A DNA stretch of 52,264 bases, taken from a virus. Taxonomy: Duplodnaviria; Caudoviricetes. The DNA is taken from the IMG/VR virus record IMGVR_UViG_3300030419_005497, positions 1 through 52,264 of that record. The stretch is one strand, 5' to 3'. Below the pieces are notes generated by a model that was not told the origin of the DNA, did not search any database, and saw only the letters and a list, made by a program, of their open reading frames with translations. The translations under genes and the position numbers were made by a program. This document shows, piece after piece, positions 2,958-52,135 of this stretch. Numbering within the stretch: the first letter of the stretch is position 1; each line of letters opens with the position of its first letter.

Positions 2958-3314
2958 TTAATCTATGTAGTCATCACACTTCCATTCTAGAAGTTCAAGT
3001 ATATCTGAGAAGGTAGGAGTCGATGGTTTAAATTTTTTTGTAATCAAATCCTCAAGCTCACCCTTCTTTATTATTAGTGATGCCATATTACCAAAGCCAG
3101 TTTTATTTGATGCTATTATTTTTCTTTCTCCAAAATCTAATTCATAATACGTTTCACCCATGCACATTGATAACAATCCAGATTTATATTTAAAGTCAAC
3201 AAGGTAATTATCTGAGTGCGCTATCCAGTGTCCTTCATTCACCTGCATAGCAGAGGAGAAAACCATTCCCCCTCGCAACTGAGATCCAAACTCAACGTCC
3301 ACAAATTGCAGCAT
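2958..3314 (-). CDS. hypothetical protein
   Basis: 118-aa ORF overlapping the ruvB stop. Confidence 0.6.
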   Translation of the reverse strand: MLQFVDVEFGSQLRGGMVFSSAMQVNEGHWIAHSDNYLVDFKYKSGLLSMCMGETYYELDFGERKIIASNKTGFGNMASLIIKKGELEDLITKKFKPSTPTFSDILELLEWKCDDYID

Positions 3315-4236
3315 AATCCTTGAGGTACTTCTGACCCGCCTTGGTTAAGCTGCGACCAGTTGGCTTCACTTGCATGAGACTCTTTTTAAGAAGGAAAATC
3401 TCAAGGTTAGTTCTAACGGCAGTTGCCTCCATGTCTAATTTGGAAGCAAGGTGAGTAAGGCTAAATTCAGTCCCACTCCCCAACGCTTGCAGTAACCGAA
3501 TCTCACTTGCGGTAAGGCCAAGGGGCTTTACATTAAGGAAATCACAAAGAGTGTCCCAATCTTTCATGGTCATGCTCTTTTTCTTACGAGCCTTTAGGTA
3601 GCTAAAGATACGATTGGCGTACTGAACCGCTTTGCGAGGCTCGTCACGGAGAACACTCGCGATACTCTCAAGGACTCCTTTCGCGAATTTGATCTTCGGC
3701 AAATTACCCTTGACGATTTTGGCAAGCTGATCGGGAGTGTAATGATCCAAGTCAATCTTCCAAAGGCGACTCATTAAAGCATGGAAAACCTTATGAGGCT
3801 CGGTTGTCGCAAACAAAAACGTGTGGCGAGTAAAATCAATTTGGATGTCAACATCGCCATGAGAATAACTGGTTCGGTTATTCTTATTGTCTGCAAGCAT
3901 AGTCAGAAGGGCAGTCTGAACATCCATCGGAAGCTCATGAGCCTCATCGATAAGGACGCAACACTCCCCGCCCATCACATCTCTGGCAATAACGTCAGCC
4001 ATAAACTGATCGAGGTTACGCCATGAGGAGGCGGTCTTGACCACGAACCTTTTAGTCGTCCGATGTTTCTGCATTGCGACTCCCAGCGCAGTAGCAAAAG
4101 CAGTCTTGCCATGACCGCGAGGCGCAATGAACATCAAATTGGGCAGAAGATTGCTATTCTTCCAATCATCAAACAAGAAGTTTAATGTTTTTCTAGGCCC
4201 ACGTTGACCTATGAACTCGGTGAATATATCTTTCAT
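3292..4236 (-). CDS. ruvB: Holliday junction branch-migration AAA+ ATPase RuvB-like
   Basis: EFIGQ, Walker A APRGHGKT, Walker B LIDEAH, FATT, SRL arginine finger, C-terminal wHTH with E.FL...GR.LT. Confidence 0.9.
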   Translation of the reverse strand: MKDIFTEFIGQRGPRKTLNFLFDDWKNSNLLPNLMFIAPRGHGKTAFATALGVAMQKHRTTKRFVVKTASSWRNLDQFMADVIARDVMGGECCVLIDEAHELPMDVQTALLTMLADNKNNRTSYSHGDVDIQIDFTRHTFLFATTEPHKVFHALMSRLWKIDLDHYTPDQLAKIVKGNLPKIKFAKGVLESIASVLRDEPRKAVQYANRIFSYLKARKKKSMTMKDWDTLCDFLNVKPLGLTASEIRLLQALGSGTEFSLTHLASKLDMEATAVRTNLEIFLLKKSLMQVKPTGRSLTKAGQKYLKDYAAICGR

Positions 4237-4610: not shown

Positions 4611-4802
4611 TTAATCATTAAATCTTTCTTCTGCTAATTCGTTAGTTAGTTTAACTACCTCTTTAGATACTCGATCCCACTGGGGGTCATCGTCTTTATG
4701 ATTGACGATGATTTCGTATTTCCATTTAGGTAGTGATTGAACGACATCGTTCCATGCCTTTTCGTATACTATGGCCGCAGGGGCTTGTCCAGTAGCTTTC
4801 AT
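4611..4802 (-). CDS. hypothetical protein
   Basis: 63-aa ORF; promoter TTGACT, 16 bp, TAGGAT at 4838-4811. Confidence 0.65.
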   Translation of the reverse strand: MKATGQAPAAIVYEKAWNDVVQSLPKWKYEIIVNHKDDDPQWDRVSKEVVKLTNELAEERFND

Positions 4803-5028
4803 CTACATAGATCCTAAATCATTTAAATTTAAAGTCAATGTAAAAACATAATTATTTTCGTAAGTTTATTTAACTATAGAAAAGGATAGGTATAAACGCG
4901 AAAGAACCAAAATAATCCAAATTTAAAATGCAGTTATTCTACTATGAAAATAGCTGTCAAGTCAAGATATTTTTACAATAGAAAAACTTTCAGGGTCGAA
5001 AAATTTTCCTTGCATTTCTCTCTGTGTA

Positions 5029-5381
5029 TATTTAGAATAGAAAAATGTTCGGAGTTAAAATGCACATTATTTCGCAGCCCAAAATCTTCGGAGTAATTTT
5101 TTAAAATTATTCAAATTTGGTTTGTCGATCATTTGTGATTGGCTAATTCGTTTGCCGATCATTATGTGCAGTTCTTGATTGGCAACGCATTATTTGGCCG
5201 CTCAAAATCTTCGGAGTATTTCGCGCTCCAGATTCTTCGGAGCTACATTATTTCGAGTGTGAAAATGTTCGGAGTTAATTTAAAATTATTTAAAATAGAT
5301 TCAAACCTAATTAATTTATATTTAAAATGCGGCTTACTTTATATGTATGTGCATTATTTCGAGCTTGTAATTCTTCGGAGT
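5029..5381 (+). repeat. six ~30-bp bipartite direct repeats (iteron-like): CATTATTTCG-N6-AAAATCTTCGGAGT
   Basis: units at 5029-5055, 5065-5094, 5188-5217, 5217-5243, 5246-5275, 5352-5381, all with a 6-nt variable centre. Confidence 0.85.
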
Positions 5382-5782
5382 AAATCTGACCATACAGCAA
5401 GTGTGATAACTAATGAAATATATAATAGAAACAAGAAGGATATATATATAAACTCAAATATATTCCAGATCTTTTTCACTATGTAATCGAATCTAAATAA
5501 ATTAAAATAGGTTTTAGAATCTAATTTGAAATAAATAAAAGTTCGGCACTACCATATTCTAAATAATCCTAATTTAAATGATTAAGGTTAATCTCTTTAT
5601 GTCCCTGTATTACTGTATCTATATGTATATCGAACAATATCAATATATCTGTTCTGCTTGTATGCAATAAGATATGTATAAAAACAAAAATTGTATATTT
5701 TAAAATGCCCAAATTAAGCCTTTCATATATAGAAAAGAAAACAATTAGCCCCGAAATGTCCCTTTCTTATATATACAAAACA
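5382..5782. other. very AT-rich non-coding tract (possible DNA-unwinding element)
   Basis: no credible ORF; long A/T runs and short degenerate repeats next to the iteron-like cluster. Confidence 0.45.
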
Positions 5783-5826
5783 AAAAAGGAGAGGAAGTCT
5801 AAATCACCTTTTTAAACCTCCTCCCC
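5783..5826 (-). terminator. intrinsic terminator closing the structured RNA
   Basis: minus strand ggggaggaggtttaaa/tttagacttcctctcc stem with G-U pairs, followed by a U6 tract. Confidence 0.8.
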
Positions 5827-6092
5827 TCTTGTCTCCACCCTGTTACCCCTTGGTAAAAGTTAAACCCATAGTGTTAAACGTGTGTTGTTCGGAGTTTTCT
5901 TCCGACTCTATTCTATGGGTTTAGTGGGATGCTAATTGGGGGGTCTAGCTATCCCACTTGTATCACTAAAGGAGGATCGCGGTCTACCTTGATGTGATAC
6001 TTTTTACGGTGTTCAATACAGGAATAACATAGTAGTCCCGTGCGCGGCTCTCCCACGCCTCTATTCCGTAAATTTCAAAGATCAAAAAAACC
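5783..6092 (-). ncRNA. putative structured non-coding RNA (unassigned)
   Basis: four abutting helices (6003-6072, 5960-6000, 5923-5958, 5861-5923); G-U pairs favour the minus strand; boxA-like TGATCTTTGAAA at the 5' end; TTGACA at 6127-6122; terminator at the 3' end; no credible ORF. Confidence 0.6.
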
Positions 6093-6123
6093 TACAAATA
6101 TGTAAGATGTAGGTTGTGTAATG

Positions 6124-6354
6124 TCAAGCAATAAGTCTCTGTTTAACCTCGTAACACACCAACGAGTTGGGATCACGATAATTGGGATCACTGGGAGTGT
6201 TTTCTTCCATTACCTCATCGTGATAAAATTCCAACTGGTCTATTGCCTGTATCTCCTCGCTAGTTGCTGGCCCCTCTCTATAATCAAACGGATTCATATT
6301 GAGATTTAGCCTAGCAAGATTTAATACAATGCTTAATGCTTCTTTATTGTCCAT
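6124..6354 (-). CDS. small hypothetical protein, MxNKEA..IVL family paralog 2
   Basis: MDNKEALSIVLNLAR N-terminus; overlaps the rIIB stop. Confidence 0.7.
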   Translation of the reverse strand: MDNKEALSIVLNLARLNLNMNPFDYREGPATSEEIQAIDQLEFYHDEVMEENTPSDPNYRDPNSLVCYEVKQRLIA

Positions 6355-7210
6355 CGCTTAAAAGTCCTTTCACCAAGTCCTCTTTAGCTTGCTTGTAGCC
6401 TTCGTTGTAGCCTTGCTCTTTGCCAGAGTCATAGCCCTCATTGTAGTCGCTATCATCGTCCCAATCTGGATCTTCCTCTCCATCATAGTAATCGTCGGTA
6501 GCTTCAGTTTCGATAATGGTTTTAACCACTCCAACAACCTTATACTTCGCAGTACGCAACTTCTGGCAGTCGCAGTCATGCGGGACGCTAACAACGTCAG
6601 ACGGGTCGATTTGAACCGCCAATAAGTGACCTCCACCGGAGGCGTAACCATTGGCATACTCGTAGCTTCCAGCGTGGAAACCTTCACTACAACCGATGTT
6701 TGCATCGTCGCAGACGGTGTTTCGCGACATTTCGAGGGTTTGGCCGACAGAATTGTCGAATCTACCCGTGTGTCTGTCAGTGAAATTAGAATTCACTCCT
6801 TTATATGCAATAAAATCTCCTTCTGGAGTAATTGGCATATTCTTATGCTCTAAAAAGCGATAAAGCTCGCTTACAGCACGGCGGGAAGGGTTCTGCATCA
6901 GTTTGTCCAGAAAACGGATCAAACGCTTATACATTACCCCTTCAGACATACATCCGAGGATTTTATCGACCAGAACATTGTGAACTGGTTCGCCTTTGTA
7001 TAGAACTACTCCGCTTTCAACGGAAATGTTTCCATCGGTATAATCGACTACTGCTTTGCCTTGATCGAACATCTCTAGCAGACCATCGGTTTCTTCATTT
7101 AGCACTTTTTCCCTAATCTCTTTGAAAAGAGGGTGAGAATCAGTTGCTATATGAGTTTGAGAGTCCCAAAATACTGTGACTTTGGTATCTGTTATATTAT
7201 ATGCGTACAT
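6344..7210 (-). CDS. rIIB: rIIB-like protein
   Basis: L..NPS..AV.ELY.FL...PIT.EG.FIAYKGV, CS.GFH, V.IDP.DVVSVP.D...KLR..KY.V motifs; acidic tail with GYxEG repeats. Confidence 0.9.
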   Translation of the reverse strand: MYAYNITDTKVTVFWDSQTHIATDSHPLFKEIREKVLNEETDGLLEMFDQGKAVVDYTDGNISVESGVVLYKGEPVHNVLVDKILGCMSEGVMYKRLIRFLDKLMQNPSRRAVSELYRFLEHKNMPITPEGDFIAYKGVNSNFTDRHTGRFDNSVGQTLEMSRNTVCDDANIGCSEGFHAGSYEYANGYASGGGHLLAVQIDPSDVVSVPHDCDCQKLRTAKYKVVGVVKTIIETEATDDYYDGEEDPDWDDDSDYNEGYDSGKEQGYNEGYKQAKEDLVKGLLSDGQ

Positions 7211-7281
7211 TTTCTTTTATCCCTTTGTATTACAACCTTTAATAAAGCTCAGAGTAAATTTCCCCTTAATGCCTTAATGCC

Positions 7282-7476
7282 TTAACTGTTTTTAAGATTA
7301 ATGTATTCTACGGTTTCAGTCAAGCACTTTTTTTCGTTATTCTGCCTAAAATAAATTTCGTCGTTCATCTCTCTTATAGTGTCCAAAACTTCAATTCCAT
7401 CTATGTTTTTTTCTACAATCAAAAAATATCCACCAATTTTTTGATAATAAATAAACTTTGCCCCGTTCCCATCCAT
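7282..7476 (-). CDS. hypothetical protein between rIIA and rIIB
   Basis: 64-aa ORF with AAGGAG SD; its 3' end contains the rIIB promoter TTGACT (7323-7318), 17 bp, TAATCT (7300-7295). Confidence 0.6.
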   Translation of the reverse strand: MDGNGAKFIYYQKIGGYFLIVEKNIDGIEVLDTIREMNDEIYFRQNNEKKCLTETVEYINLKNS

Positions 7477-7537
7477 TTTAATCTCCTTTTACATTGGTCT
7501 AATTGTTTGTGTTTTAAAATTGTTTAAATTTAAATTT

Positions 7538-7578
7538 AGGGAGGCTCCCCCGCCAACTCCTTAACCGGAGAGCCTCCC
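7538..7578 (-). terminator. GC-rich hairpin after rIIA (probable terminator)
   Basis: gggaggctc...gagcctccc inverted repeat just downstream of the rIIA stop, followed by an AT-rich stretch. Confidence 0.55.
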
Positions 7579-7585
7579 GTTCACT

Positions 7586-9787
7586 CTACTTACCGTTTAG
7601 ATAAGCGGAGAGATACTTTACATCCCCTACTTCTATCCCGTGATAATAGTCATTCGGGTTCATGAACTTAATCATCGGGTATTCTTCAATGAGTTCATCC
7701 ACCTGTTGCAAGTACGGGTTCTCTCCATCAGTATCTTGCTCAGGTTTCATAATTTTTTCAACCTCGTCCCTATCGATACCAAGACGAGCAAGGCCGCAAC
7801 GTAGGTTACTGTAGTGATCTCTAGGGCTACGATTCACTTTCGCAGAATTCGCGGCATCAACTAAATCCATGTATAAATGGTTTTTGTTTTTTAGCTGGCT
7901 TCGCAAAGTATTAATAATCTCATCTTTTGCAATAATGAAATTAGCATGGTAGCGAATTTTATCGCGGTTGCACCAATCTACTGCATCTTCATAGGCGTTG
8001 TTTTCTTCGGCCCATTTTGTCACGATTTGAAAGGTGACATCTTTCAATGCAGTCCAACCCTTACCAAGTTTCTTTATGGCTGAACTTTTAACAGCATAAA
8101 CTTCATCTTCGGAAGGAATGTCCTCTACGACTTCACGCATAGACCTCAGATGCTTGAAATAGACTTGAGGTGTTTCACCATCAATTTTATATCGATTCAT
8201 TTCAATGAAAATTCCATCAGTCTTTTCATTTAGATCGCAGTCAACTGGTTTCCAGTAGTCAGAATCATTACCCGTTTCTCCTGCTGAACCGTCTCTAACG
8301 AATTTGAATACTTTCAGATTGTTTTTTGGATTAGTGGGAGTATAGGAGCGAGTACCACTTGTGGTACGCTTCCCAAAGTCCTCTGGGAGAGAAACCTCCG
8401 ACAAATTTTTAATTTCACAATCAACTTTTGTTTTATCTAAAAACTCCTCCATGCCGTTGACCATCTTGCCCTCATTGTTGGCGTAATGCTCTGGGCAACT
8501 AATAAGGTGAACGTCATTCCCTGCTTCTGCCTCGCTCACGCAACGAGCGTAGAGTCCACGGGGGTTGGGAAGATCATTGTAGTAAAGAACAGTGTTTGGC
8601 TTCACCGCAATGTTGCGAGTTTCAACTCTACGGAACTTTTGAGTGTTTCGAGACTTCTCATAGCGATAAACCTTGAGGGGGCTACTACGCAAGTCCCAGC
8701 AAGAGATATTGGCAGAGTCGATTGCTTGACCATCATAGTCCACCTTTTCCACGATTCGGGAAAGGGTGTAGTATCCACTTCCGTAATCAAAAAGCTCGCC
8801 ATAGAGCAGTTTCGCTCCCCAATAGGACTTTTCGTTGGCAAATTTCTCATGAATTTGCCCAACGATTTCCTCCTTAATCTTGAGCATCTTTTTTACTATG
8901 TTCTTAATCGTAACATCAGTATATTCCAACATCTCGCGAGAGGCGGCGACACTCAATTCCCCGATTTCAAATTCAATATGCAGACATTCGCTGAACATAT
9001 TCTCTAATTCCTCTGGGACGTTTTTGAGGTTACTCTTTTCAATCCGGTAAGCAACATTGCCCATGATCGCAACTGGCTTGTTGTCGGAGTAATAAGTAGA
9101 AGTATTCGATGTGTTCCACTCCCATTCATCCCCAGAAAGAATTGGATCTTTTTGATCTTCAAAAAAAGTTGGTCGGCCCTTTATGACGGGCTTAACCTTG
9201 AAGTAGCGGAAAAACTCTTGAGCCTTTTCCTCAAAGACATTTATATCGTCTGGCTCAACGGGAATAATAACTTCGATCCCGTTTTCCTCATTGGTATCAC
9301 TAACGCCAAGTAAATCGCACTGACCTACCTTACTTGGATCAATAATTGCATTGTAGTGATAGCACTTGCCATCGACGTATGACTTAACCATGAAACTATC
9401 GGAATAGGCAAAGGCAGACTTACAACCGATTCCAAACATACCGATTGCATCATTAGTTCCACGCTTGGTTGACTCACCGTATTGAGTGTAGATATTCCGA
9501 ACCTCATCAGTGGTCAAACCCTTGCCATAATCGCGAACCGAAAACTCAGTCAGTAATCGAGTAGGAAGCCCAATTACAATAGGTCTTTCGGGCTGACCTG
9601 TTTGAACATGAGCATCTACCGCATTGCAAGCATACTCACGCTGAACTGCTAAAATCTTGTCCGAATACATTGAGTTTCGGAGAATATCCAGAAGGTGAGG
9701 CAATCCACTTTCAGAGATTGCGAACGAGACGGATTCCTGTATCCCTTTTTGGGATAAGGCGTTTTCATTAATTGGAGTTGGTTTCAT
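7586..9787 (-). CDS. rIIA: rIIA-like protein with N-terminal GHKL/HATPase domain
   Basis: MYSDKILAVQREYACNAVDAH, VRDYGKGL, YGESTK, IGMFGIGCKSAFAYSDSF; MGNVAY and GEL...SRE.L.Y; upstream of rIIB. Confidence 0.9.
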   Translation of the reverse strand: MKPTPINENALSQKGIQESVSFAISESGLPHLLDILRNSMYSDKILAVQREYACNAVDAHVQTGQPERPIVIGLPTRLLTEFSVRDYGKGLTTDEVRNIYTQYGESTKRGTNDAIGMFGIGCKSAFAYSDSFMVKSYVDGKCYHYNAIIDPSKVGQCDLLGVSDTNEENGIEVIIPVEPDDINVFEEKAQEFFRYFKVKPVIKGRPTFFEDQKDPILSGDEWEWNTSNTSTYYSDNKPVAIMGNVAYRIEKSNLKNVPEELENMFSECLHIEFEIGELSVAASREMLEYTDVTIKNIVKKMLKIKEEIVGQIHEKFANEKSYWGAKLLYGELFDYGSGYYTLSRIVEKVDYDGQAIDSANISCWDLRSSPLKVYRYEKSRNTQKFRRVETRNIAVKPNTVLYYNDLPNPRGLYARCVSEAEAGNDVHLISCPEHYANNEGKMVNGMEEFLDKTKVDCEIKNLSEVSLPEDFGKRTTSGTRSYTPTNPKNNLKVFKFVRDGSAGETGNDSDYWKPVDCDLNEKTDGIFIEMNRYKIDGETPQVYFKHLRSMREVVEDIPSEDEVYAVKSSAIKKLGKGWTALKDVTFQIVTKWAEENNAYEDAVDWCNRDKIRYHANFIIAKDEIINTLRSQLKNKNHLYMDLVDAANSAKVNRSPRDHYSNLRCGLARLGIDRDEVEKIMKPEQDTDGENPYLQQVDELIEEYPMIKFMNPNDYYHGIEVGDVKYLSAYLNGK

Positions 9788-9820
9788 GATTTGTATGTGT
9801 TATTCGTTTAACTTGAGACG

Positions 9821-12502: not shown

Positions 12503-12579
12503 TGGTTGGCCCGTAGGGACTTGAACCCTAAACCTTGGAATTATGAGTTCCCTGCTCTAACCGATTGAGCTACGGGCCA
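12503..12579 (-). tRNA. tRNA with CAT anticodon, probably tRNA-Ile2 (alternatively elongator Met)
   Basis: TGGCCCG TA GCTC..GAGC A GGGAA CT CAT AA TTCCA..TAGGG TTCAAGT CCCTA CGGGCCA A CCA; C4/C5 in acceptor stem as in Ile2; encoded CCA. Confidence 0.9.
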
Positions 12580-27793: not shown

Positions 27794-28136
27794 TTTCTTC
27801 TTTTTCCATCTCTCTTACCCACTCAGTAACGTGGTCGTATTCATCCTGAATCCACGTACAAAGCTGTCTTGATTCTTCTTTACGTAAAACTAACTGGTCG
27901 TCATAATAATTGCCCTTAAATAAAGCCAAGTAACACAGCTTCAGTCTCATCCACCAAGTTAACTTAACGGGGTTTATACCCTCTCGCCAAAAACTAACAT
28001 AGATTTCTTCTTCGCCGTCAAACTTGGTAAGTAGCATACCTTCGCCGTGACAACTGCATTTTATGAATTTTTCTCGATCAGCCATTCTTTCCAAATACTT
28101 CGTTTGATTGCTGAGTGACTCTAACGAAAGTTGCAC
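27777..28136 (-). CDS. hypothetical protein
   Basis: ORF with CSCH; likely start MADRE at 28085. Confidence 0.65.
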
Positions 28137-29238
28137 ATTTGGGCATATCCTTTATCCTCTTAGCCCCAATATAAGTACAAGTAGAGCGCAACCCGCCAAG
28201 AATACTTTCCATAGTGTCTTTAAGTCTTCCGCGATGTTTTATCCTTACTGTTTTTCCTTCTGACGAACGATAGCTCGCAACGCCACCATGATACTTGTTC
28301 ATGGCTGTATCAGAACTCATTCCGTAAAATGCTTTGTAAGTCTCTCCATTTACTATTTCTTCTTGCCCCGCTGATTCATTATGACCAGCCAGCATCCCGC
28401 CCAACATAACAAAATCAGCACCAGCACAAAAGGCCTTGGCCACATCGCCAGCGCACACGCACCCCCCATCAGCCATAATATGCCCACCAATCCCATGTGC
28501 AGCATCCGCGCATTCAATGACCGCGCTGAGTTGAGGATAACCCACACCAGTTTGTATACGAGTAGTACAGACAGACCCGCCGCCAATGCCCACTTTAACA
28601 ATATCTGCTCCACTTAAAAGTATCTCCTCTGTCATTTCGCCAGTAACAACATTGCCAGCGATTATAATAATATGCGGAAATTCTTCACGCACCCTTTTAA
28701 TAAAATCGCAGAACTTGGCACTATAACCATTTGCGATATCAATACAAACAAACTGATTATGGTAAAAATTCCATTGAATGTTTCTAAGATAATCTAAATC
28801 ATCGGTATCTTTTTCGCTATATTTGATTCCAATAGAGGGCGAGAGATGCTTGTAAATTCTGTTTTGCCAACGATCTGAATCTCTATCATATTCCCAATTC
28901 TCTTCATTGGCTTCTTTCTGCTCCTTATTCTTCCAAACTCCATAGCCATTCAATTTGTGCGCCCAAACATCACCATCGTAATGTTTACTTATGCAAGTTA
29001 GGCCGTGATACTGAGCGAGAACTTTACCTGTCTCAAAAGTTCCTACTGTATCCATGTTTGAAGCAACGATAGGAACACCTGTCCAACCGTAACTCGGATT
29101 ACCAGCACCATCTGCCCCAGCGTTCTTGAAGGTGAAAGTACGCATCAAGTCTACCTCACTACGAGACGTAAGCTCTGATCGCTTTGGGCGTAAAAGAACG
29201 TCTTTATAGTCCAGCTTTATATCTGACTCAATTCTCAT
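28078..29238 (-). CDS. guaC: GMP reductase
   Basis: [64 protein letters not shown]. Confidence 0.95.
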
Positions 29239-33423: not shown

Positions 33424-34203
33424 TCAAGGATTTTTAGCTTTATACCTCAAGGTTTCATCTACCTCAAGCCATGCTGATGGGTCGGGGTCATCTAAGAAGC
33501 TCGCTATATCTTCATAAAAATTACCACGATCCATCCAATCCATTGCTTTATAGGTGTAAGTTTCCAGTAATTTTTTGACCTGTTTAACTTCATCGAAGGC
33601 TATATGGCCCCCATGAATATTTGATTTTTTGTCCATTTCATCAAATTCTTTGAAGTTTTCTTGAATCTTTTTATTGGACTCTCTGCTGGTAGAAGAAATC
33701 ATATCTAACTTAATATCTTCATCTATTTTTAGATCTAAAAAACCTTCCAACTCGGAAAATATATAATCGTAGTCGTAAGCAAATTTTTCATAAAGTAAAA
33801 CTAATTGTGGCCCCCTGTACTTCTTCTTAAATTCATCCATGTAGATAAGTTGTTTCTTGTAATGATAAGAGTCTGTCCACAGAAGTGCTTCATGTTTTAA
33901 TCTAAGTTGTGTTCCGTCAGGCATTACAACTTCAAATTGATTGTCTGGATCTTCAAAGTGAGTCACAAATTTTTCTGTATCCCCCTTGAATCTAGTGACC
34001 CTAATATAAGATAGTAAAGATTCCATAGTATCGCGCTCAGTAATAACGCATGGAGATTTACCATCTAACACATCCTGCGTGGTTCCCATAACGTGGAGCT
34101 TTTTTACATCTTCATTCTTTAGAATCTTTTTAATGCATTGCCATATTAAAGTAGATCCTGTGCGACTTGCACTCATTACGAAAACCTCTTCTTTGTTATT
34201 CAT
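33424..34203 (-). CDS. sulfotransferase-family protein
   Basis: S..RTGST PAPS-binding loop, RD....L.S, L.YE motifs. Confidence 0.7.
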   Translation of the reverse strand: MNNKEEVFVMSASRTGSTLIWQCIKKILKNEDVKKLHVMGTTQDVLDGKSPCVITERDTMESLLSYIRVTRFKGDTEKFVTHFEDPDNQFEVVMPDGTQLRLKHEALLWTDSYHYKKQLIYMDEFKKKYRGPQLVLLYEKFAYDYDYIFSELEGFLDLKIDEDIKLDMISSTSRESNKKIQENFKEFDEMDKKSNIHGGHIAFDEVKQVKKLLETYTYKAMDWMDRGNFYEDIASFLDDPDPSAWLEVDETLRYKAKNP

Positions 34204-35042
34204 GACTTCTTATCCAAATATACTTTCTTTTTTCTTTTATATAGGTCTTTGACTTTAAGCATGGCTATCCTTTCTATCTGCCTTATTCTTTCTCTAGTGA
34301 CGCTAAAAATCTTCCCTATCTCTTCCAAGGTCTGGGGTTCGTCTCCATCGATGCCAAATCTTCTTTCTAGGATTCTTCTTTCTCTTAAAGATAGCTCATG
34401 TAAAATTTTGTGTATTTCTCTAACGTGATTCTCGCCTTCTATTTTCTCAGAGGGGTCTTGAGTATTATTGTCTTTTATTACCTCGTTGAAGCTGTCGCTA
34501 TCCTCATCCTCTCCTACTTTAGAATCTAAAGAGATTATAGCAGATCCAGCCTCTATCATCTCGTTAACCTTCCTAACCGAAATGCCTAGCTCCTTTGAAG
34601 CCTCATTCGGGGTAGGCTTTCTGTCGTGTTTTTCTTGGAAAGCTTCGGCATATTTTAGATAATTTAAATAAATTTGCTTAAGGTAGCATGGCATCCTTAT
34701 CATAGACCCATGATTGCTCAAGGCTCTCATTATCTTTTGCCTTATCCAAAACCCTGCATAAGTAGAAAATTTTGCACCCTTTTGGGGATTGAATCTATCG
34801 ACTGCTTGAATTAAGCCTAGGTTTCCTTCGCTAACTAAATCTTCTAAATCCATGCCTAATCTTTCATAGGATCTAGCTATCTTGATAACTAGCCTTAAAT
34901 TACAGGCGATGAATTTGTTTTTGGCTTTTAGTCTTTCTTTCGGCTTGCCATTTTTTATCTTCAAATAAAGTTCGTTCTCTTCTTTTACCGTAAGAAGGTT
35001 TGGCAATTTTTGCTCTCCGTAAAAACTATACTCCGATTTCAA
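34200..35042 (-). CDS. RNA polymerase sigma70-family factor (RpoD/RpoS-like, regions 1.2-4)
   Basis: NLRLVIKIA, DLVSEGNLGL..AVDRF.P.KG.KFSTYA.FWIRQ, IR.P, SLD, L..RER.I...RFG, TLEEIG..F.VTRERIRQIE. Confidence 0.95.
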   Translation of the reverse strand: MKSEYSFYGEQKLPNLLTVKEENELYLKIKNGKPKERLKAKNKFIACNLRLVIKIARSYERLGMDLEDLVSEGNLGLIQAVDRFNPQKGAKFSTYAGFWIRQKIMRALSNHGSMIRMPCYLKQIYLNYLKYAEAFQEKHDRKPTPNEASKELGISVRKVNEMIEAGSAIISLDSKVGEDEDSDSFNEVIKDNNTQDPSEKIEGENHVREIHKILHELSLRERRILERRFGIDGDEPQTLEEIGKIFSVTRERIRQIERIAMLKVKDLYKRKKKVYLDKKS

Positions 35043-41654: not shown

Positions 41655-41731
41655 TGGTACGTCCAGAGGGATTCGAACCCCCGACCCCAAGTTTAGAAGA
41701 CTCGTGCTCTATCCAACTGAGCTATGGACGC
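41655..41731 (-). tRNA. tRNA-Arg (TCT)
   Basis: GCGTCCA TA GCTC..GAGC A CGAGT CT TCT AA ACTTG..GGTTCGAATCC..TGGACGT A CCA. Confidence 0.95.
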
Positions 41732-48555: not shown

Positions 48556-48654
48556 GCCTATCCGTACACCTTTTTTCTTCTCTTCAAATTAAAAGTTCTT
48601 CTGAGTTACTTTTTGTGAAACTTGTCACTAAAAAGCTGTAAATTCTATTACATC

Positions 48655-51123
48655 ATGAAACAAGATTCTCAGATCATACACGTAAAAAAAAGAAACGGGA
48701 GACTACAAAAACTAAACATAGATAAGATAAACCTTTGCGCCACATGGGCTTGTAGCGACCTAGAGAATGTATCAGCAAGTGAGGTAGTGCTAGATGCTCA
48801 CGTTCAAATTTATGATAAAATCACCACTGATGAGATAGACAAGGCTCTCATCATGAGTGCTCGCCAAAAAATAGAAAAGGAGCCCAACTATTCTTATGTA
48901 GCGGCTAGGCTTTTATTGTCTTCTCTATATAAGGAAGTATTTGGAGAAAGCGTAGATAAAGATACATACGATCATCAATATAAAATATCTTTCATAAGGA
49001 ATACTAAAAAACTAGTCAAAGAAGAAATCCTCGATGAGAAGTTACTAGACTTCGACTTAAAGCATCTTTCAGAACACCTAAAACTAGAAAGAGATTACAA
49101 ATTTAAATACCTTGGGCTTCAGATACTAAGTGATAGATATTTACATCACATTAATGAAAGAATAATGGAGACACCCCAAGCTTTCTGGATGCGTGTATCT
49201 ATGGGGCTTGCTCTTAACGAAGAAAACAAAAATGAAAAAGCTATTGAGTTTTATAATACGTTGTCTCAGTTTTATCTGTGTTGCTCTACTCCTACCCTCT
49301 TTAATAGTGGTAGTACTCACAGTCAGCTTTCCAGTTGTTATCTTAATACTTTTGACGATTCAATTGATGGAATTTTTGAGGGTTTGTGGCAAGAAGCTAG
49401 AAAGTCCAAATTTGCTGGAGGCCTAGGCTTTGACGTAAGCAGCTTTAGGGCGGCTAATTCTTACGTAAAAGGAACCAACGGCAAGTCTTCTGGCTTAATC
49501 CCTTGGCTTAAAATTTATAACGACACCTTAATTGCAGTAGACCAAGGAGGCAAAAGGCCGGGAGCAGGGTGCGCTTATCTTGAACCTTGGCACTTAGATA
49601 TAGAAGATTTTCTAGACCTCAAGAAAAACACCGGAGACGAACGCAGAAGGTGTCATGATATGAACACCGCAAACTGGATTCCCGATTTATTTATCAGAAG
49701 AGTTCAAGAGGATGGCGATTGGTATTTATTTTCCCCATCCGATGTAAGAGACCTTCACGAAATGCATGGGGATAAATTTGATAAAAGGTACAAAAAATAC
49801 TGCAAGCTCGCAGACAATGGCGAACTCGAAAATTTCAAGGTCATAAAGGCTAAAGACCTATGGAAAAGAATGCTAAGGGCTCTTTTTGAAACGGGGCATC
49901 CTTGGATGACCTTTAAAGATAACGCTAACATGCGGTACTCTAACAGTCATGAAGGAGTAGTTCATAGTTCAAATCTTTGCACCGAGATATTCCTACACAC
50001 AAAACCTTCTAGATTTAACGAGGGTGAAAAAACAGAGGTTGGGGAAACTGCCGTGTGCAACCTAAGTTCTGTAAATTTAAAACAGCATATTAAAGAGGAT
50101 AATACATTAGACTTTGATCAGTTGGCAAAAACCATAGAAGTCCAAATGCGTATGCTGGACAATGTAATCGATTTAAATTTTTACCCAACCAAAGAGGCCG
50201 AAAACTCGAACTTAAAACATAGACCCGTTGGCGCTGGAAGCATGGGGTGGGCAGATGTATTTCATGCTTACGAGGTAGACTTTTCAAGCGATGACGCAGT
50301 TAAGTTCTCTGATGAACTCTACGAATTCATTTCTTATCATTGCATCTTAAATTCTAATAAACTATCCAAAGAAAGAGGCTCTTATTCTACATACGATGGA
50401 TCTTTATGGAGTAAGGATATACTTCCCATAGATACATATAAAAACCTAATGGATTACCTAGGCGAAAAACCCTTAATTCATAGAGGAAAAAAGTTTTGCC
50501 CAGAACTAGACTGGAAAACTCTAAGAGGCGACATAAAAGAGCACGGTATGCGTAACAGTAACACTATGGCAATTGCCCCAACGGCAACTATCTCTTACAT
50601 TCAAGGATGTTCTCCTTGTATCGAGCCAGACTTCTCAGTTCTTTTTGTCTACGAAAACAAAAGCGGCAATCTAACCATTGTTAATGAATGGTTTATAAAA
50701 GAATGCAAAAAAAGAGGAATTTGGAATCAAGGCTTAATTGACGCCATAAAATCAGTAGATGGAGACATATCCCTACTTAACGGAGACATACCAGAAGACT
50801 TAAAGCATAGATTTTCAACTTGCTTCGAAAGAGATCAGTTCAAACTTATAGATTCAGCAGCAGCTAAACAAAAGTGGATTGATATGGGGCAATCTTTGAA
50901 CCTATTCAACAAAGAGACATCACTAAAATACTTGAATGACTTATATATTCATGCTAGAAACAGAGGCTTGAAAAGCACCTACTACCTGAGAAACCTATCA
51001 GCTAGTAAAATAGAGAAATCGACGAATACACCCATGCAAGAAATAGAGGGCAAGCACGAAGCAATAGGGGAAATGGCAAAGGCTTGCAGTATTCTAGATC
51101 CAACATGCGAAAGCTGCCAATAA
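48655..51123 (+). CDS. nrdA: ribonucleotide reductase class I alpha subunit with ATP cone
   Basis: VKKRNG ATP cone, STPTLFNSG, QLSSCYL, SSNLCTEI, AVCNL, AIAPTATIS, KSTYYLR, C-terminal CESCQ. Confidence 0.97.
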   Translation: MKQDSQIIHVKKRNGRLQKLNIDKINLCATWACSDLENVSASEVVLDAHVQIYDKITTDEIDKALIMSARQKIEKEPNYSYVAARLLLSSLYKEVFGESVDKDTYDHQYKISFIRNTKKLVKEEILDEKLLDFDLKHLSEHLKLERDYKFKYLGLQILSDRYLHHINERIMETPQAFWMRVSMGLALNEENKNEKAIEFYNTLSQFYLCCSTPTLFNSGSTHSQLSSCYLNTFDDSIDGIFEGLWQEARKSKFAGGLGFDVSSFRAANSYVKGTNGKSSGLIPWLKIYNDTLIAVDQGGKRPGAGCAYLEPWHLDIEDFLDLKKNTGDERRRCHDMNTANWIPDLFIRRVQEDGDWYLFSPSDVRDLHEMHGDKFDKRYKKYCKLADNGELENFKVIKAKDLWKRMLRALFETGHPWMTFKDNANMRYSNSHEGVVHSSNLCTEIFLHTKPSRFNEGEKTEVGETAVCNLSSVNLKQHIKEDNTLDFDQLAKTIEVQMRMLDNVIDLNFYPTKEAENSNLKHRPVGAGSMGWADVFHAYEVDFSSDDAVKFSDELYEFISYHCILNSNKLSKERGSYSTYDGSLWSKDILPIDTYKNLMDYLGEKPLIHRGKKFCPELDWKTLRGDIKEHGMRNSNTMAIAPTATISYIQGCSPCIEPDFSVLFVYENKSGNLTIVNEWFIKECKKRGIWNQGLIDAIKSVDGDISLLNGDIPEDLKHRFSTCFERDQFKLIDSAAAKQKWIDMGQSLNLFNKETSLKYLNDLYIHARNRGLKSTYYLRNLSASKIEKSTNTPMQEIEGKHEAIGEMAKACSILDPTCESCQ

Positions 51124-51124
51124 G

Positions 51125-52135
51125 ATGAGTAAAACCGGATTATTACTTGATGAAAACACAACTGGCGTAAACCAGATCCTCCCTCATAAACATCAATACG
51201 CTTGGGACCTATTTCTTAAAGGGGTAGCGAATAATTGGTCTCCAGCCGAAATAAACATGTCGGATGACGTAAAACAATGGAAAGGAGATGATTTATCCAA
51301 AGATGAAAAACTACTGGTTAAAAGATGCCTTGGCTTTTTCGCTGGAAGTGAGTCCTTGGTTGGCAATAATTTACTTCTTAATGTCGCGAAATGGATAACT
51401 GATGCGGAGTGCGGTCAATATATAATGAGACAAGCTTATGAAGAGTCTCTTCACAACTGGACAGTTGTAACTTGCTGCGATAGCTACTCATTGAAAATAT
51501 CAGAGGTATACGAAGCATACATTAATGTCCCCTCAATAAAAGCCAAAGACGAGTTTTTAATGGGGATAACCTCAGATATCAACAGGCAAGACTTCACTAC
51601 TAAGACGATAGAAGGGAAAAAAGAATTCCTCAGAAACTTAATTACATACTACATCGTATGCGAGGGAACCTTTTTCTTTAGTGGATTTGCTATGCTCTTG
51701 GCTCTTGGCAGACAAAACAAACTCCCCGGACTTTCTGATCAAATCAGATACACGTTAAGAGATGAAAGCCTACATATTCAATTTGGTACGTACCTAATCA
51801 ACACGATCAAAGAACAATACCCATCGGTGTGGACTAAAAAATTCGAAGAAGAAACAATTGAGCATATTAAAAAAGCCGTAGAGCTTGAGATACAATATGC
51901 CCACGACGTTCTTCCACGAGGCATTCTTGGCTTAAACGCCGAGATGTTTGTTGATTATATGCAGTATATTGGAAACAGAAGGCTTGAAGGTATTGGAATT
52001 GACTTTTCTTTCGAGAACGCTCAAAATCCGTTTCCTTGGCTGTCCGAAGTTGTTGACACTACAGCAATGACGAACTTCTTCGAAAGGAAAGTTAAAGATT
52101 ATCAAAGCTCTGGAGTTCTAGAGGATGATTTTTAA
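51125..52135 (+). CDS. nrdB: ribonucleotide reductase beta subunit, class Ic (R2c)-type signature
   Basis: FFAGSESLVGNN (Glu as first ligand), EESLHNWTV (Val at radical-Tyr position), EG.FF.SGF, RDESLH, NFFE..V..Y. Confidence 0.92.
   Translation: MSKTGLLLDENTTGVNQILPHKHQYAWDLFLKGVANNWSPAEINMSDDVKQWKGDDLSKDEKLLVKRCLGFFAGSESLVGNNLLLNVAKWITDAECGQYIMRQAYEESLHNWTVVTCCDSYSLKISEVYEAYINVPSIKAKDEFLMGITSDINRQDFTTKTIEGKKEFLRNLITYYIVCEGTFFFSGFAMLLALGRQNKLPGLSDQIRYTLRDESLHIQFGTYLINTIKEQYPSVWTKKFEEETIEHIKKAVELEIQYAHDVLPRGILGLNAEMFVDYMQYIGNRRLEGIGIDFSFENAQNPFPWLSEVVDTTAMTNFFERKVKDYQSSGVLEDDF

Follow-up and report, generated by a model that had tools for sequence, protein, structure and literature searches.

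Strong support was obtained for a real new RNA motif family, a three-way junction of about 85 nt, which occurs twice within a short stretch of an uncultured phage genome. The stretch occupies positions 5783-6092, minus strand, of a 52,264-bp IMG/VR virus record with an estimated completeness of 33%; this record, analysed over its full length, is referred to here as the window. An earlier note, made from the letters of the DNA alone, had taken the stretch for a single RNA of about 310 nt with a boxA-like leader and a possible conformational switch. A scan with a covariance model of the motif, named R1, resolved it instead into two modules of about 85 nt and a number of lineage-specific hairpins. 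The flagged stretch is thus an array of modules and hairpins and not a single 310-nt fold. The module itself may be a cis-acting element coupled to transcription termination, either an attenuator or a 3′-end domain, a reading to which we assign a probability of roughly 0.4.

The RNA read from the minus strand between 6100 and 5775 had a minimum free energy (MFE) of -110.3 kcal/mol, compared with -79.9 +/- 5.4 kcal/mol for its shuffled versions (z -5.64), and 0 of 100 shuffles equalled it; the plus-strand fold of the same region gave a z of -1.82. No minus-strand open reading frame (ORF) of at least 40 aa was found within 5783-6092, and the plus strand carried an ORF at 6121-6309 and others further out. 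These results bear out the earlier proposal of a structured, strand-specific and non-coding region, and the helices listed in the note, its small hairpin and its strong terminator were all present on the minus strand. When R1 was run without filters on the window, two matches stood apart and all else scored below 10 bits, the next best being 9.8 bits. Because R1 finds both, helices 1 and 4 of the array are two copies of one module. Their parts are given below, P1 being the closing helix, P2 and P3 the inner hairpins and J the junction strands; rows without another source were read from the sequence.

6081-5994, minus strand: motif copy 1, full (R1, 68.6 bits, E 1.7e-15, filters off)
6072-6066 with 6009-6003, minus strand: P1 of copy 1, which is the outer stem of helix 1 and encloses its inner hairpins
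6065-6059, minus strand: J1/2 of copy 1, AAUAGAG
6058-6053 with 6047-6042, minus strand: P2 of copy 1, with loop GAGAG at 6052-6048
6041-6040, minus strand: AC strand of copy 1, followed by P3
6017-6010, minus strand: AUUGAACA, the last part of J3/1 of copy 1
5928-5856, minus strand: motif copy 2, reduced, with P3 replaced by 6 nt (R1, 42.3 bits, E 1e-08)
5920-5913 with 5871-5864, minus strand: P1 of copy 2, which is the outer stem of helix 4
5912-5906, minus strand: J1/2 of copy 2, AAUAGAG
5905-5901 with 5893-5889, minus strand: P2 of copy 2, with a GAAAA-type loop
within 5928-5856, minus strand: J3/1 of copy 2, ending in UUUAACA; a U-rich tail comes after the copy

Covariation of the motif across phage contigs

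When positions 5700-6200 were compared with the phage collection by blastn, no match was obtained, and an nhmmer search with the whole RNA against 57 loci carrying rIIB homologues gave only two weak, adjacent matches, both in locus L009 and both to helix 1. These weak tandem matches led to the motif. L009 contained two tandem units of about 80 nt. Both resembled the window in having a closing stem, the strands GGAAUAGAG and UUGAACACC, and two hairpins, one of them with a GAGAG loop. A strict pattern of this core matched 41 stretches of viral contigs, about 1 being expected by chance according to our own arithmetic, and a looser pattern matched at least 119. The 35 distinct units aligned with clear compensatory changes, and on a three-helix structure 88.7% of their cells were paired, compared with 57.9% in shuffles and 35-46% when the partners were slid.

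The core of the module, which measures about 85 nt, consists in order of GG, AAUAGAG, P2 with a GAGA(R) loop, AC, P3, YAUUGAACA and CC. P1 closes the junction and is topped by G-G/C-C, P2 is a hairpin of 5-6 bp and P3 is a variable hairpin. Near-invariant positions comprised the G-G/C-C top of P1, AAUAGAG, the GAGA of the P2 loop, AC and UGAACA, with about 24 nt in junction and loops. R1 was applied to the first locus set (49 matches) and to 57 loci newly listed by the looser pattern, L101-L157, with L158-L186 left out. It gave 51 matches in 50 of these 57 loci and none in the other seven (L112, L116, L123, L124, L138, L142 and L144). Including the uncultured podovirus AP013544.1, which is the only named record with the motif, the totals were 103 matches, 85 distinct sequences and 79 loci; the 79 phage loci formed 28 groups, loci being joined when they shared at least two proteins with a minimum identity of 70%.

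An alignment made with the model was then evaluated; its 89 matches came from phage contigs of IMG/VR, from one uncultured podovirus in GenBank and from five contigs of metagenome-assembled genomes (MAGs). Paired cells amounted to 90.8%, compared with 57.8 +/- 0.9% in shuffles and 35-44% in slid controls, and cells altered on both sides numbered 588 as against 175 in shuffles; 0 of 500 shuffles reached either measure. The top 13 column pairs by mutual information were all annotated base pairs, and no column pair outside the helices stood out by this measure as a candidate tertiary pair or pseudoknot. The abundance of G-U pairs shows that the RNA corresponds to the strand used in the model. Collection of homologues followed by a covariation test, which the earlier note had suggested as a check, yielded many phage homologues and strong covariation. 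A conserved core with covarying stems is a trait of riboswitch-like RNAs, and the family possesses it.

Searches of Rfam 15 were performed at several levels of stringency. The whole window yielded no more than two tRNAs at the gathering threshold, both outside the array, and 15 motif loci gave 0 matches at that level. Positions 5400-6500 searched at E<=10 gave noise only, the best hit being a miRNA model on the terminator (25.5 of 70 bits); six motif loci at E<=5 gave nothing relevant, and for the 119 nt surrounding the copy of highest score there were 0 matches even at E<=10. In agreement with the statement of the note that the RNA was neither tRNA nor tmRNA, ARAGORN found only a tRNA-Met and a tRNA-Arg elsewhere in the window, and the module is unlike tRNA in having two hairpins and junction lengths of 7, 2 and 9 nt. 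The view that the array is novel also held with respect to Rfam 15, in which nothing matched it.

Gene context and a possible link to transcription termination

The module lies on the coding strand between genes of the same strand, inside operons. A same-strand ORF ended within 130 nt upstream in 67 of the 85 distinct copies, and within 15 nt in 24 of them. Downstream, a same-strand ORF started within 130 nt in 62 copies and within 30 nt in 34; the other 23, some of them at locus ends, had no such start within 130 nt. Among 61 downstream genes scanned, we found T7-like RNA polymerases (6), DNA polymerases (5), Holliday-junction resolvases (5 and 3), excisionase-type regulators (3) and large terminases (2); others encoded a ParB-methylase fusion, a PAPS reductase, an HNH endonuclease, an exonuclease and an IMPDH/GMP-reductase-like enzyme. 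Upstream genes were equally mixed, and within the fetched flanks no protein family was common to more than 4 of the 28 groups. The variety of the genes and the lack of a common flank protein indicate that the module is either generic and self-contained or acts with something universal. The placement expected of a riboswitch was not found: the downstream genes form no coherent pathway, and bacterial genomes are nearly free of the motif.

A U-rich tract, defined as at least 5 U in 8 nt beginning 0-4 nt past P1, followed the closing helix in 46 of the 85 distinct copies and in 16 of the 28 phage groups; the comparison, a crude control, was with 767 sites located past ORF stops in these loci, of which only 57 had such a tract. 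In many copies the tract began 0-2 nt past the last P1 pair, sometimes with a matching A tract upstream. A separate terminator composed of a hairpin and a U tract was present within 130 nt in 9 of the 85 copies, the window included. In L074, a P1 of 12 bp was followed by U7, AAGGAGG and ATG; this spacing leaves no room for a promoter, so that the next gene could be reached only by read-through. Because the module often has the anatomy of an intrinsic terminator, with the conserved three-way junction as its hairpin, we infer that the module may be a terminator-coupled cis element.

A module of this kind would act in cis on the phage transcript. Folding of the conserved core would close P1, and in about half of the copies P1 and the immediate U tract would give the module the form of an intrinsic terminator, so that partial or conditional closure of P1 would set the level of read-through into the next gene, be it an RNA polymerase, a DNA polymerase, a resolvase, a terminase or another. 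The terminated RNA would keep a compact 3′ domain. In the window, where the array is the ORF-free 3′ trailer of the rIIA-rIIB operon, transcription of the rII unit would stop at the two copies and a canonical terminator, and the RNA would retain a stable, structured tail.

Besides the crudeness of the control, several observations weigh against a terminator-coupled element. U-rich tails were missing from 39 of the 85 copies, among them copy 1 of the window, and the tail of copy 2, although U-rich, is interrupted. Most copies upstream of T7-like RNA polymerase genes have no U tail and a start codon 3-13 nt past P1, and in this group P1 would lie in the landing zone of the ribosome instead. The P3 loop showed no extra complementarity to its own flanks, the cognate and non-cognate energies being the same (-7.2 and -7.2 kcal/mol). 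Conservation of the core was partly forced, since most copies were fetched with patterns that fix it; copies found by the model only (copy 2 of the window, the second copies of L091 and L077, the third of L075, and those of L017, L005, L018 and AP013544.1) keep the core with few changes. Two metatranscriptome libraries from one study (X19 and X20) each contained one contig, of 164 and 163 nt, spanning 5891/5892-6054 and showing no differences from the window, but such contigs carry neither strand, ends nor level, and DNA carry-over is possible. The rest of 5400-7400 had no cover in these libraries, which is uninformative, as the runs are tiny (about 4 million letters) and in the form of contigs. 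Finally, the invariance of the junction goes beyond what a plain terminator would require, which implies a further role for the core.

The motif could be a new phage-only class of autonomous RNA, either a sensor that gates transcription into key genes or a new self-cleaving ribozyme; we regard this as a tentative and rather unlikely possibility. Orphan motifs with an invariant junction and strong covariation have earlier proved to be riboswitches, ribozymes or binding sites for core machinery. A sensor placed before RNA polymerase, DNA polymerase and terminase genes and responding to a host metabolite or factor would, if true, be the first phage-only riboswitch-like class. For sensor and ribozyme alike, the invariant junction would be the binding or active site, and if it binds a ligand or catalyses cleavage, the short list of such RNAs would gain a new class.

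Taken by itself, a new self-cleaving or self-processing RNA that cuts polycistronic phage transcripts between genes is unlikely. Such cutting in phage-like contexts is the role proposed for hammerhead, twister, pistol and hatchet ribozymes, and the small size of the motif, its roughly 24 near-invariant junction and loop nucleotides and its freely covarying stems would suit such a function, as would the neighbouring ParB-methylase, PAPS reductase, HNH endonuclease and terminase genes, which are reportedly associated with twister and hammerhead ribozymes. Copy number is low as well: five large viral contigs scanned whole had 1-3 copies each, with tandem pairs in the window, G001, G004 and the MAG contig G008. 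Against cleavage, none of the Rfam ribozyme models matched positions 5400-6500 (E<=10), the six motif loci (E<=5) or the 119-nt stretch (E<=10), and the hammerhead core, CUGANGA/GAAA, was not seen on direct reading. In addition, enrichment of U tracts after P1 is foreign to ribozymes, and the RNA-library contigs run unbroken across J3/1 of copy 1 and J1/2 of copy 2.

Restriction to phages also fits a ribozyme. In a scan of one genome per species from 185,579 bacterial and archaeal species, the strict pattern matched 11 stretches, about the number expected by chance according to our own arithmetic. R1 confirmed 5 of the 11, all on MAG contigs, and at least three of these lay beside phage genes: L189, L193 and L194 adjoin clear phage-family genes, and L190 has a weak match to a virion protein. 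The neighbours comprised a Holliday-junction resolvase with a helicase, a tail assembly protein and other PHROG families. In the order that was sampled, 1 of 151 genomes carried the motif, the centre genome only. The motif is thus essentially confined to phages. R1 found nothing in the whole records of RcXuper, MD18, DSS3P8, HTVC109P and HTVC021P, an empty result that is uninformative, and tblastn with the neighbouring proteins found no close cultured relatives.

Somewhat less probable than a ribozyme is a stable trans-acting small RNA (sRNA) or decoy, released from the 3′ end of the operon through termination and processing and serving in immunity, anti-defence or as a sponge for a host factor. 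The C4/CI immunity RNAs of P1/P7 and P4 are three-helix RNAs of comparable outline. In the window and several large phages, the motif is followed by a terminator, an AT-rich ORF-poor region or both, with no gene nearby, and the tandem arrays, the presence of the array in RNA libraries and a U tail after the closing stem, which is typical of the 3′ ends of bacterial sRNAs, would agree with a released RNA. The 34 copies within 30 nt of the next start codon are a better fit to a cis element, however, and neither a match to the Rfam C4 model (5400-6500 and the 119-nt stretch, E<=10) nor a partner protein in the flanks was obtained. The variable P3 loop, moreover, is without complementarity to the flanks, distant targets not having been searched.

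More improbable again is an exonuclease-resistant or protective fold that stabilises phage messages, at the 3′ end of the upstream gene or the 5′ end of the downstream one. The exonuclease-resistant RNAs of flaviviruses (xrRNAs) are also three-way junctions and often tandem; the motif likewise sits at message boundaries in diverse phages with no common partner gene, is sometimes tandem and is found in RNA libraries, and its invariant core would be compatible with an action through shape only. The lack of any pseudoknot or tertiary pair in the mutual information speaks against such a fold, and with 1-3 copies per genome fragment the motif cannot be a general stabiliser of messages.

The least probable of the explanations that we considered is that the module serves in processive antitermination, like nut and put sites, and lets RNA polymerase pass the terminators behind it, or that its RNA primes replication at the adjacent AT-rich repeats; none of the findings favours either specifically. 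Terminators often come after the module, and P2 is a hairpin of 5-6 bp with a purine pentaloop, which we take to resemble lambda boxB; the UUUAACA variants of J3/1 are presumably similar to the 3′ half of boxA. The boxA-like sequence of the earlier note, TGATCTTTGAAA, is indeed present before copy 1 (6083-6072), but columns 1-8 of the 5′ flank of the family are merely U-rich, with no more than 48% identity, and no such flank is conserved. The flanks have no N-like or Q-like gene in common either, and half of the copies carry their own U tract, which would make the module a terminator and not a suppressor. As for priming, an AT-rich region with repeats (GC 0.22-0.30) lies downstream of the array, as the note had said, and in several large phages (L017, L005, L061 and L076) the motif likewise precedes a tract rich in AT. 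Most lineages, on the other hand, have the motif directly between adjacent genes with no such region, and the 34-nt repeats of the window are on the opposite strand and at least 400 nt away.

A terminator-coupled element thus remains our preferred reading. The motif occurs widely among uncultured aquatic phages and is placed at control points, ahead of genes for polymerases, recombination and packaging. The module of about 85 nt offers a compact object for studying the timing of gene expression in phages without cultured relatives, and R1 can be used to annotate it.

The array and its surroundings in the window

The other elements of the array, from 6113 to 5775, are as follows.

6113-6084, minus strand: weak hairpin CCUACA/UGUAGG with an 11-nt loop, followed by U7, just past the stop of a small ORF (read from the sequence)
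6000-5960, minus strand: hairpin 2, outer stem GUAUCAC/GUGAUAC and inner stem AAGG/CCUU, lineage-specific (MFE fold)
5957-5924, minus strand: hairpin 3, GUGGGAU/AUCCCAC and GCUAG/UUAGC with a C-rich loop, lineage-specific (fold)
5856-5843, minus strand: small hairpin UUACC-AAGG-GGUAA (fold)
5830-5784, minus strand (part of 5830-5775): intrinsic terminator with 20 pairs, a 7-nt loop and a U-rich tail (terminator scan and fold)

The closing hairpin at 5830-5784 has the stable stem and immediate U tract of an intrinsic terminator. The weak hairpin at 6113-6084 looks like a leaky terminator, and the terminator scan did not flag it because its loop exceeds 8 nt. A perfect TTGACA hexamer (6127-6122, minus strand) overlaps the stop codon of the 76-aa ORF, with TACATA 17 nt and CATATT 19 nt downstream of it, within the loop of the weak hairpin (6127-6097); together these are a possible promoter of the array itself, which the consensus promoter scan did not flag. 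The phage encodes its own sigma factor, so its promoters may differ from sigma-70 sites. In hairpin 2, the purine run AAGG pairs with a run containing CCUCCU, which presumably resembles the 3′ end of 16S rRNA.

A variant DNA contig from run X2 changes a U-A pair to U-G at 5930 and a loop position at 5943, both in hairpin 3, and an A-U pair to G-U at 5854 in the small hairpin; these pair-keeping variants lend weak backing to the two hairpins. The conformational switch proposed in the note, in which 6007-5999 would pair with 5860-5853 and close a four-way junction, did not stand up: only 6 contiguous A/U-rich pairs with a bulge can form, which is at chance level, the array RNA containing 26 perfect 6-mer complements compared with a shuffle mean of 13.3 and a maximum of 29. 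A pattern with two cores at the spacing of the window, used to look for homologues of the whole array, matched 1 viral-contig stretch, which is coding and a chance match.

Between the array and the next minus-strand genes, GC is 0.22-0.30 over about 900 bp (4800-5800). This gap contains, at 5026-5385 on the plus strand, six direct repeats of about 34 nt that are 62-100% identical to a reference copy, spaced by 26-123 nt; each starts with CATTATTTCG and has TTCGGAGT and a few further bases at its end. Iterons are one possibility, a cluster of promoters serving the plus-strand ORF at 5139-5486 another.

The source is an uncultured marine phage with a genome of roughly 150 kb. DNA runs containing the array stretch were marine or seawater metagenomes, and the closest cultured phages, of about 147 kb and infecting Rhodobacter and roseobacters, showed just 28-34% identity in rIIA. 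The genes of interest in the window are these.

6124-9787, minus strand: upstream operon of the rIIA-like gene, the 64-aa ORF, the rIIB-like gene and the 76-aa ORF (ORFs and PHROG matches)
7586-9787, minus strand: rIIA-like gene (phrog_612, 1.3e-113)
7282-7476, minus strand: 64-aa ORF between the rIIA-like and rIIB-like genes (ORF list)
6344-7210, minus strand: rIIB-like gene (phrog_609, 6e-71)
6124-6354, minus strand: 76-aa ORF, the last gene before the array (ORF list)
3292-4236, minus strand: clamp-loader/RuvB-like ATPase, beyond the array (protein-family matches)
34200-35042, minus strand: phage-encoded sigma factor (phrog_351, 2.7e-71)
48622-52135, plus strand: NrdA/NrdB ribonucleotide reductase pair (PHROG scan)
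28078-29238, minus strand: IMPDH/GMP-reductase-like dehydrogenase (phrog_9582)
12503-12579, minus strand: tRNA-Met (CAT) (ARAGORN, Rfam)
41655-41731, minus strand: tRNA-Arg (TCT) (ARAGORN, Rfam)

Some further observations concern individual loci. The IMPDH-like gene of the window (28078-29238) has no motif copy before it; in G001, a large phage related to it, a motif copy (L075 504-589) lies directly before a gene of this family. In the group of L131 (17 loci), a protein of about 480-500 aa of unknown function, phrog_33218, always precedes the motif, and this family was matched by 16 of the 67 upstream ORFs scanned; the example encoded at L131 1313-2755 had neither a Pfam domain nor, within the phage collection, a tblastn match. 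The tracts that follow the motif in L017, L005, L061 and L076 are ORF-poor and contain short A-rich repeats. In L091, three tandem elements of about 33 nt, each with a TTTACTAATGCGATT-like box and, after it, one resembling TAAAATATA, lie 20-130 nt downstream of the motif copy at 9719-9808 (minus strand) and look like a promoter cluster.

Relation to known RNA elements

Relative to Rfam 15 the motif is new, and no description of it was found in the full-text literature, supplementary tables, which may list it, being outside the scope of that search. Fremin, Bhatt and Kyrpides (2023, PMC10690425) reported 10,006 unnamed candidate structured RNAs from viral data that include IMG/VR, the same source as ours; some of them precede genes for large terminases, resolvases, RusA and methyltransferases, and terminators were predicted for 1241 of 8495 candidates. 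Its main text, from which the words 'three-way', 'junction' and 'RNA polymerase' are absent, describes neither a three-way-junction motif nor one located upstream of RNA polymerase genes, and the motif may be among the candidates under a DNAVirus number in the supplementary tables. A term search in bioRxiv 10.64898/2026.10.21.760802 gave 0 occurrences.

Three groups of known elements invite comparison. The ribozymes found in phage contexts (hammerhead, twister, twister-sister, pistol and hatchet), together with RAGATH motifs, are similar to the motif in size, in conservation centred on the junction, in covarying stems and in a patchy, phage-restricted distribution, and reportedly also in ParB-methylase, PAPS reductase, HNH and terminase neighbours. 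Unlike them, the motif matches none of these classes in Rfam (119 nt, E<=10) and is associated with U tracts, and its junction strands, AAUAGAG, AC and YAUUGAACA, are not those of the hammerhead.

The boxA/boxB elements of lambda nut and HK022 put are, like the motif, phage-specific, cis-acting RNA elements located before terminators, and P2 is presumably boxB-like. In contrast to them, the motif has no conserved boxA in its 5′ flank and no N-like partner in its flanks, comprises three helices closed by P1 and often bears a U tract of its own.

In its presumed function, the motif is most like intrinsic terminators and attenuators. Its hairpin differs from theirs: it is a three-way junction in which about 24 nucleotides are near-invariant. 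The U tract is missing from about half of the copies, the downstream genes share no pathway and the family is essentially confined to phages. An aptamer that overlaps a terminator stem is found in the HMP-PP/thiS riboswitch class. What the motif shares with intrinsic terminators and attenuators is a closing helix that, in 46 of 85 copies, has a U tract directly behind it, together with a position within operons, occasionally in tandem, before genes reached by read-through.

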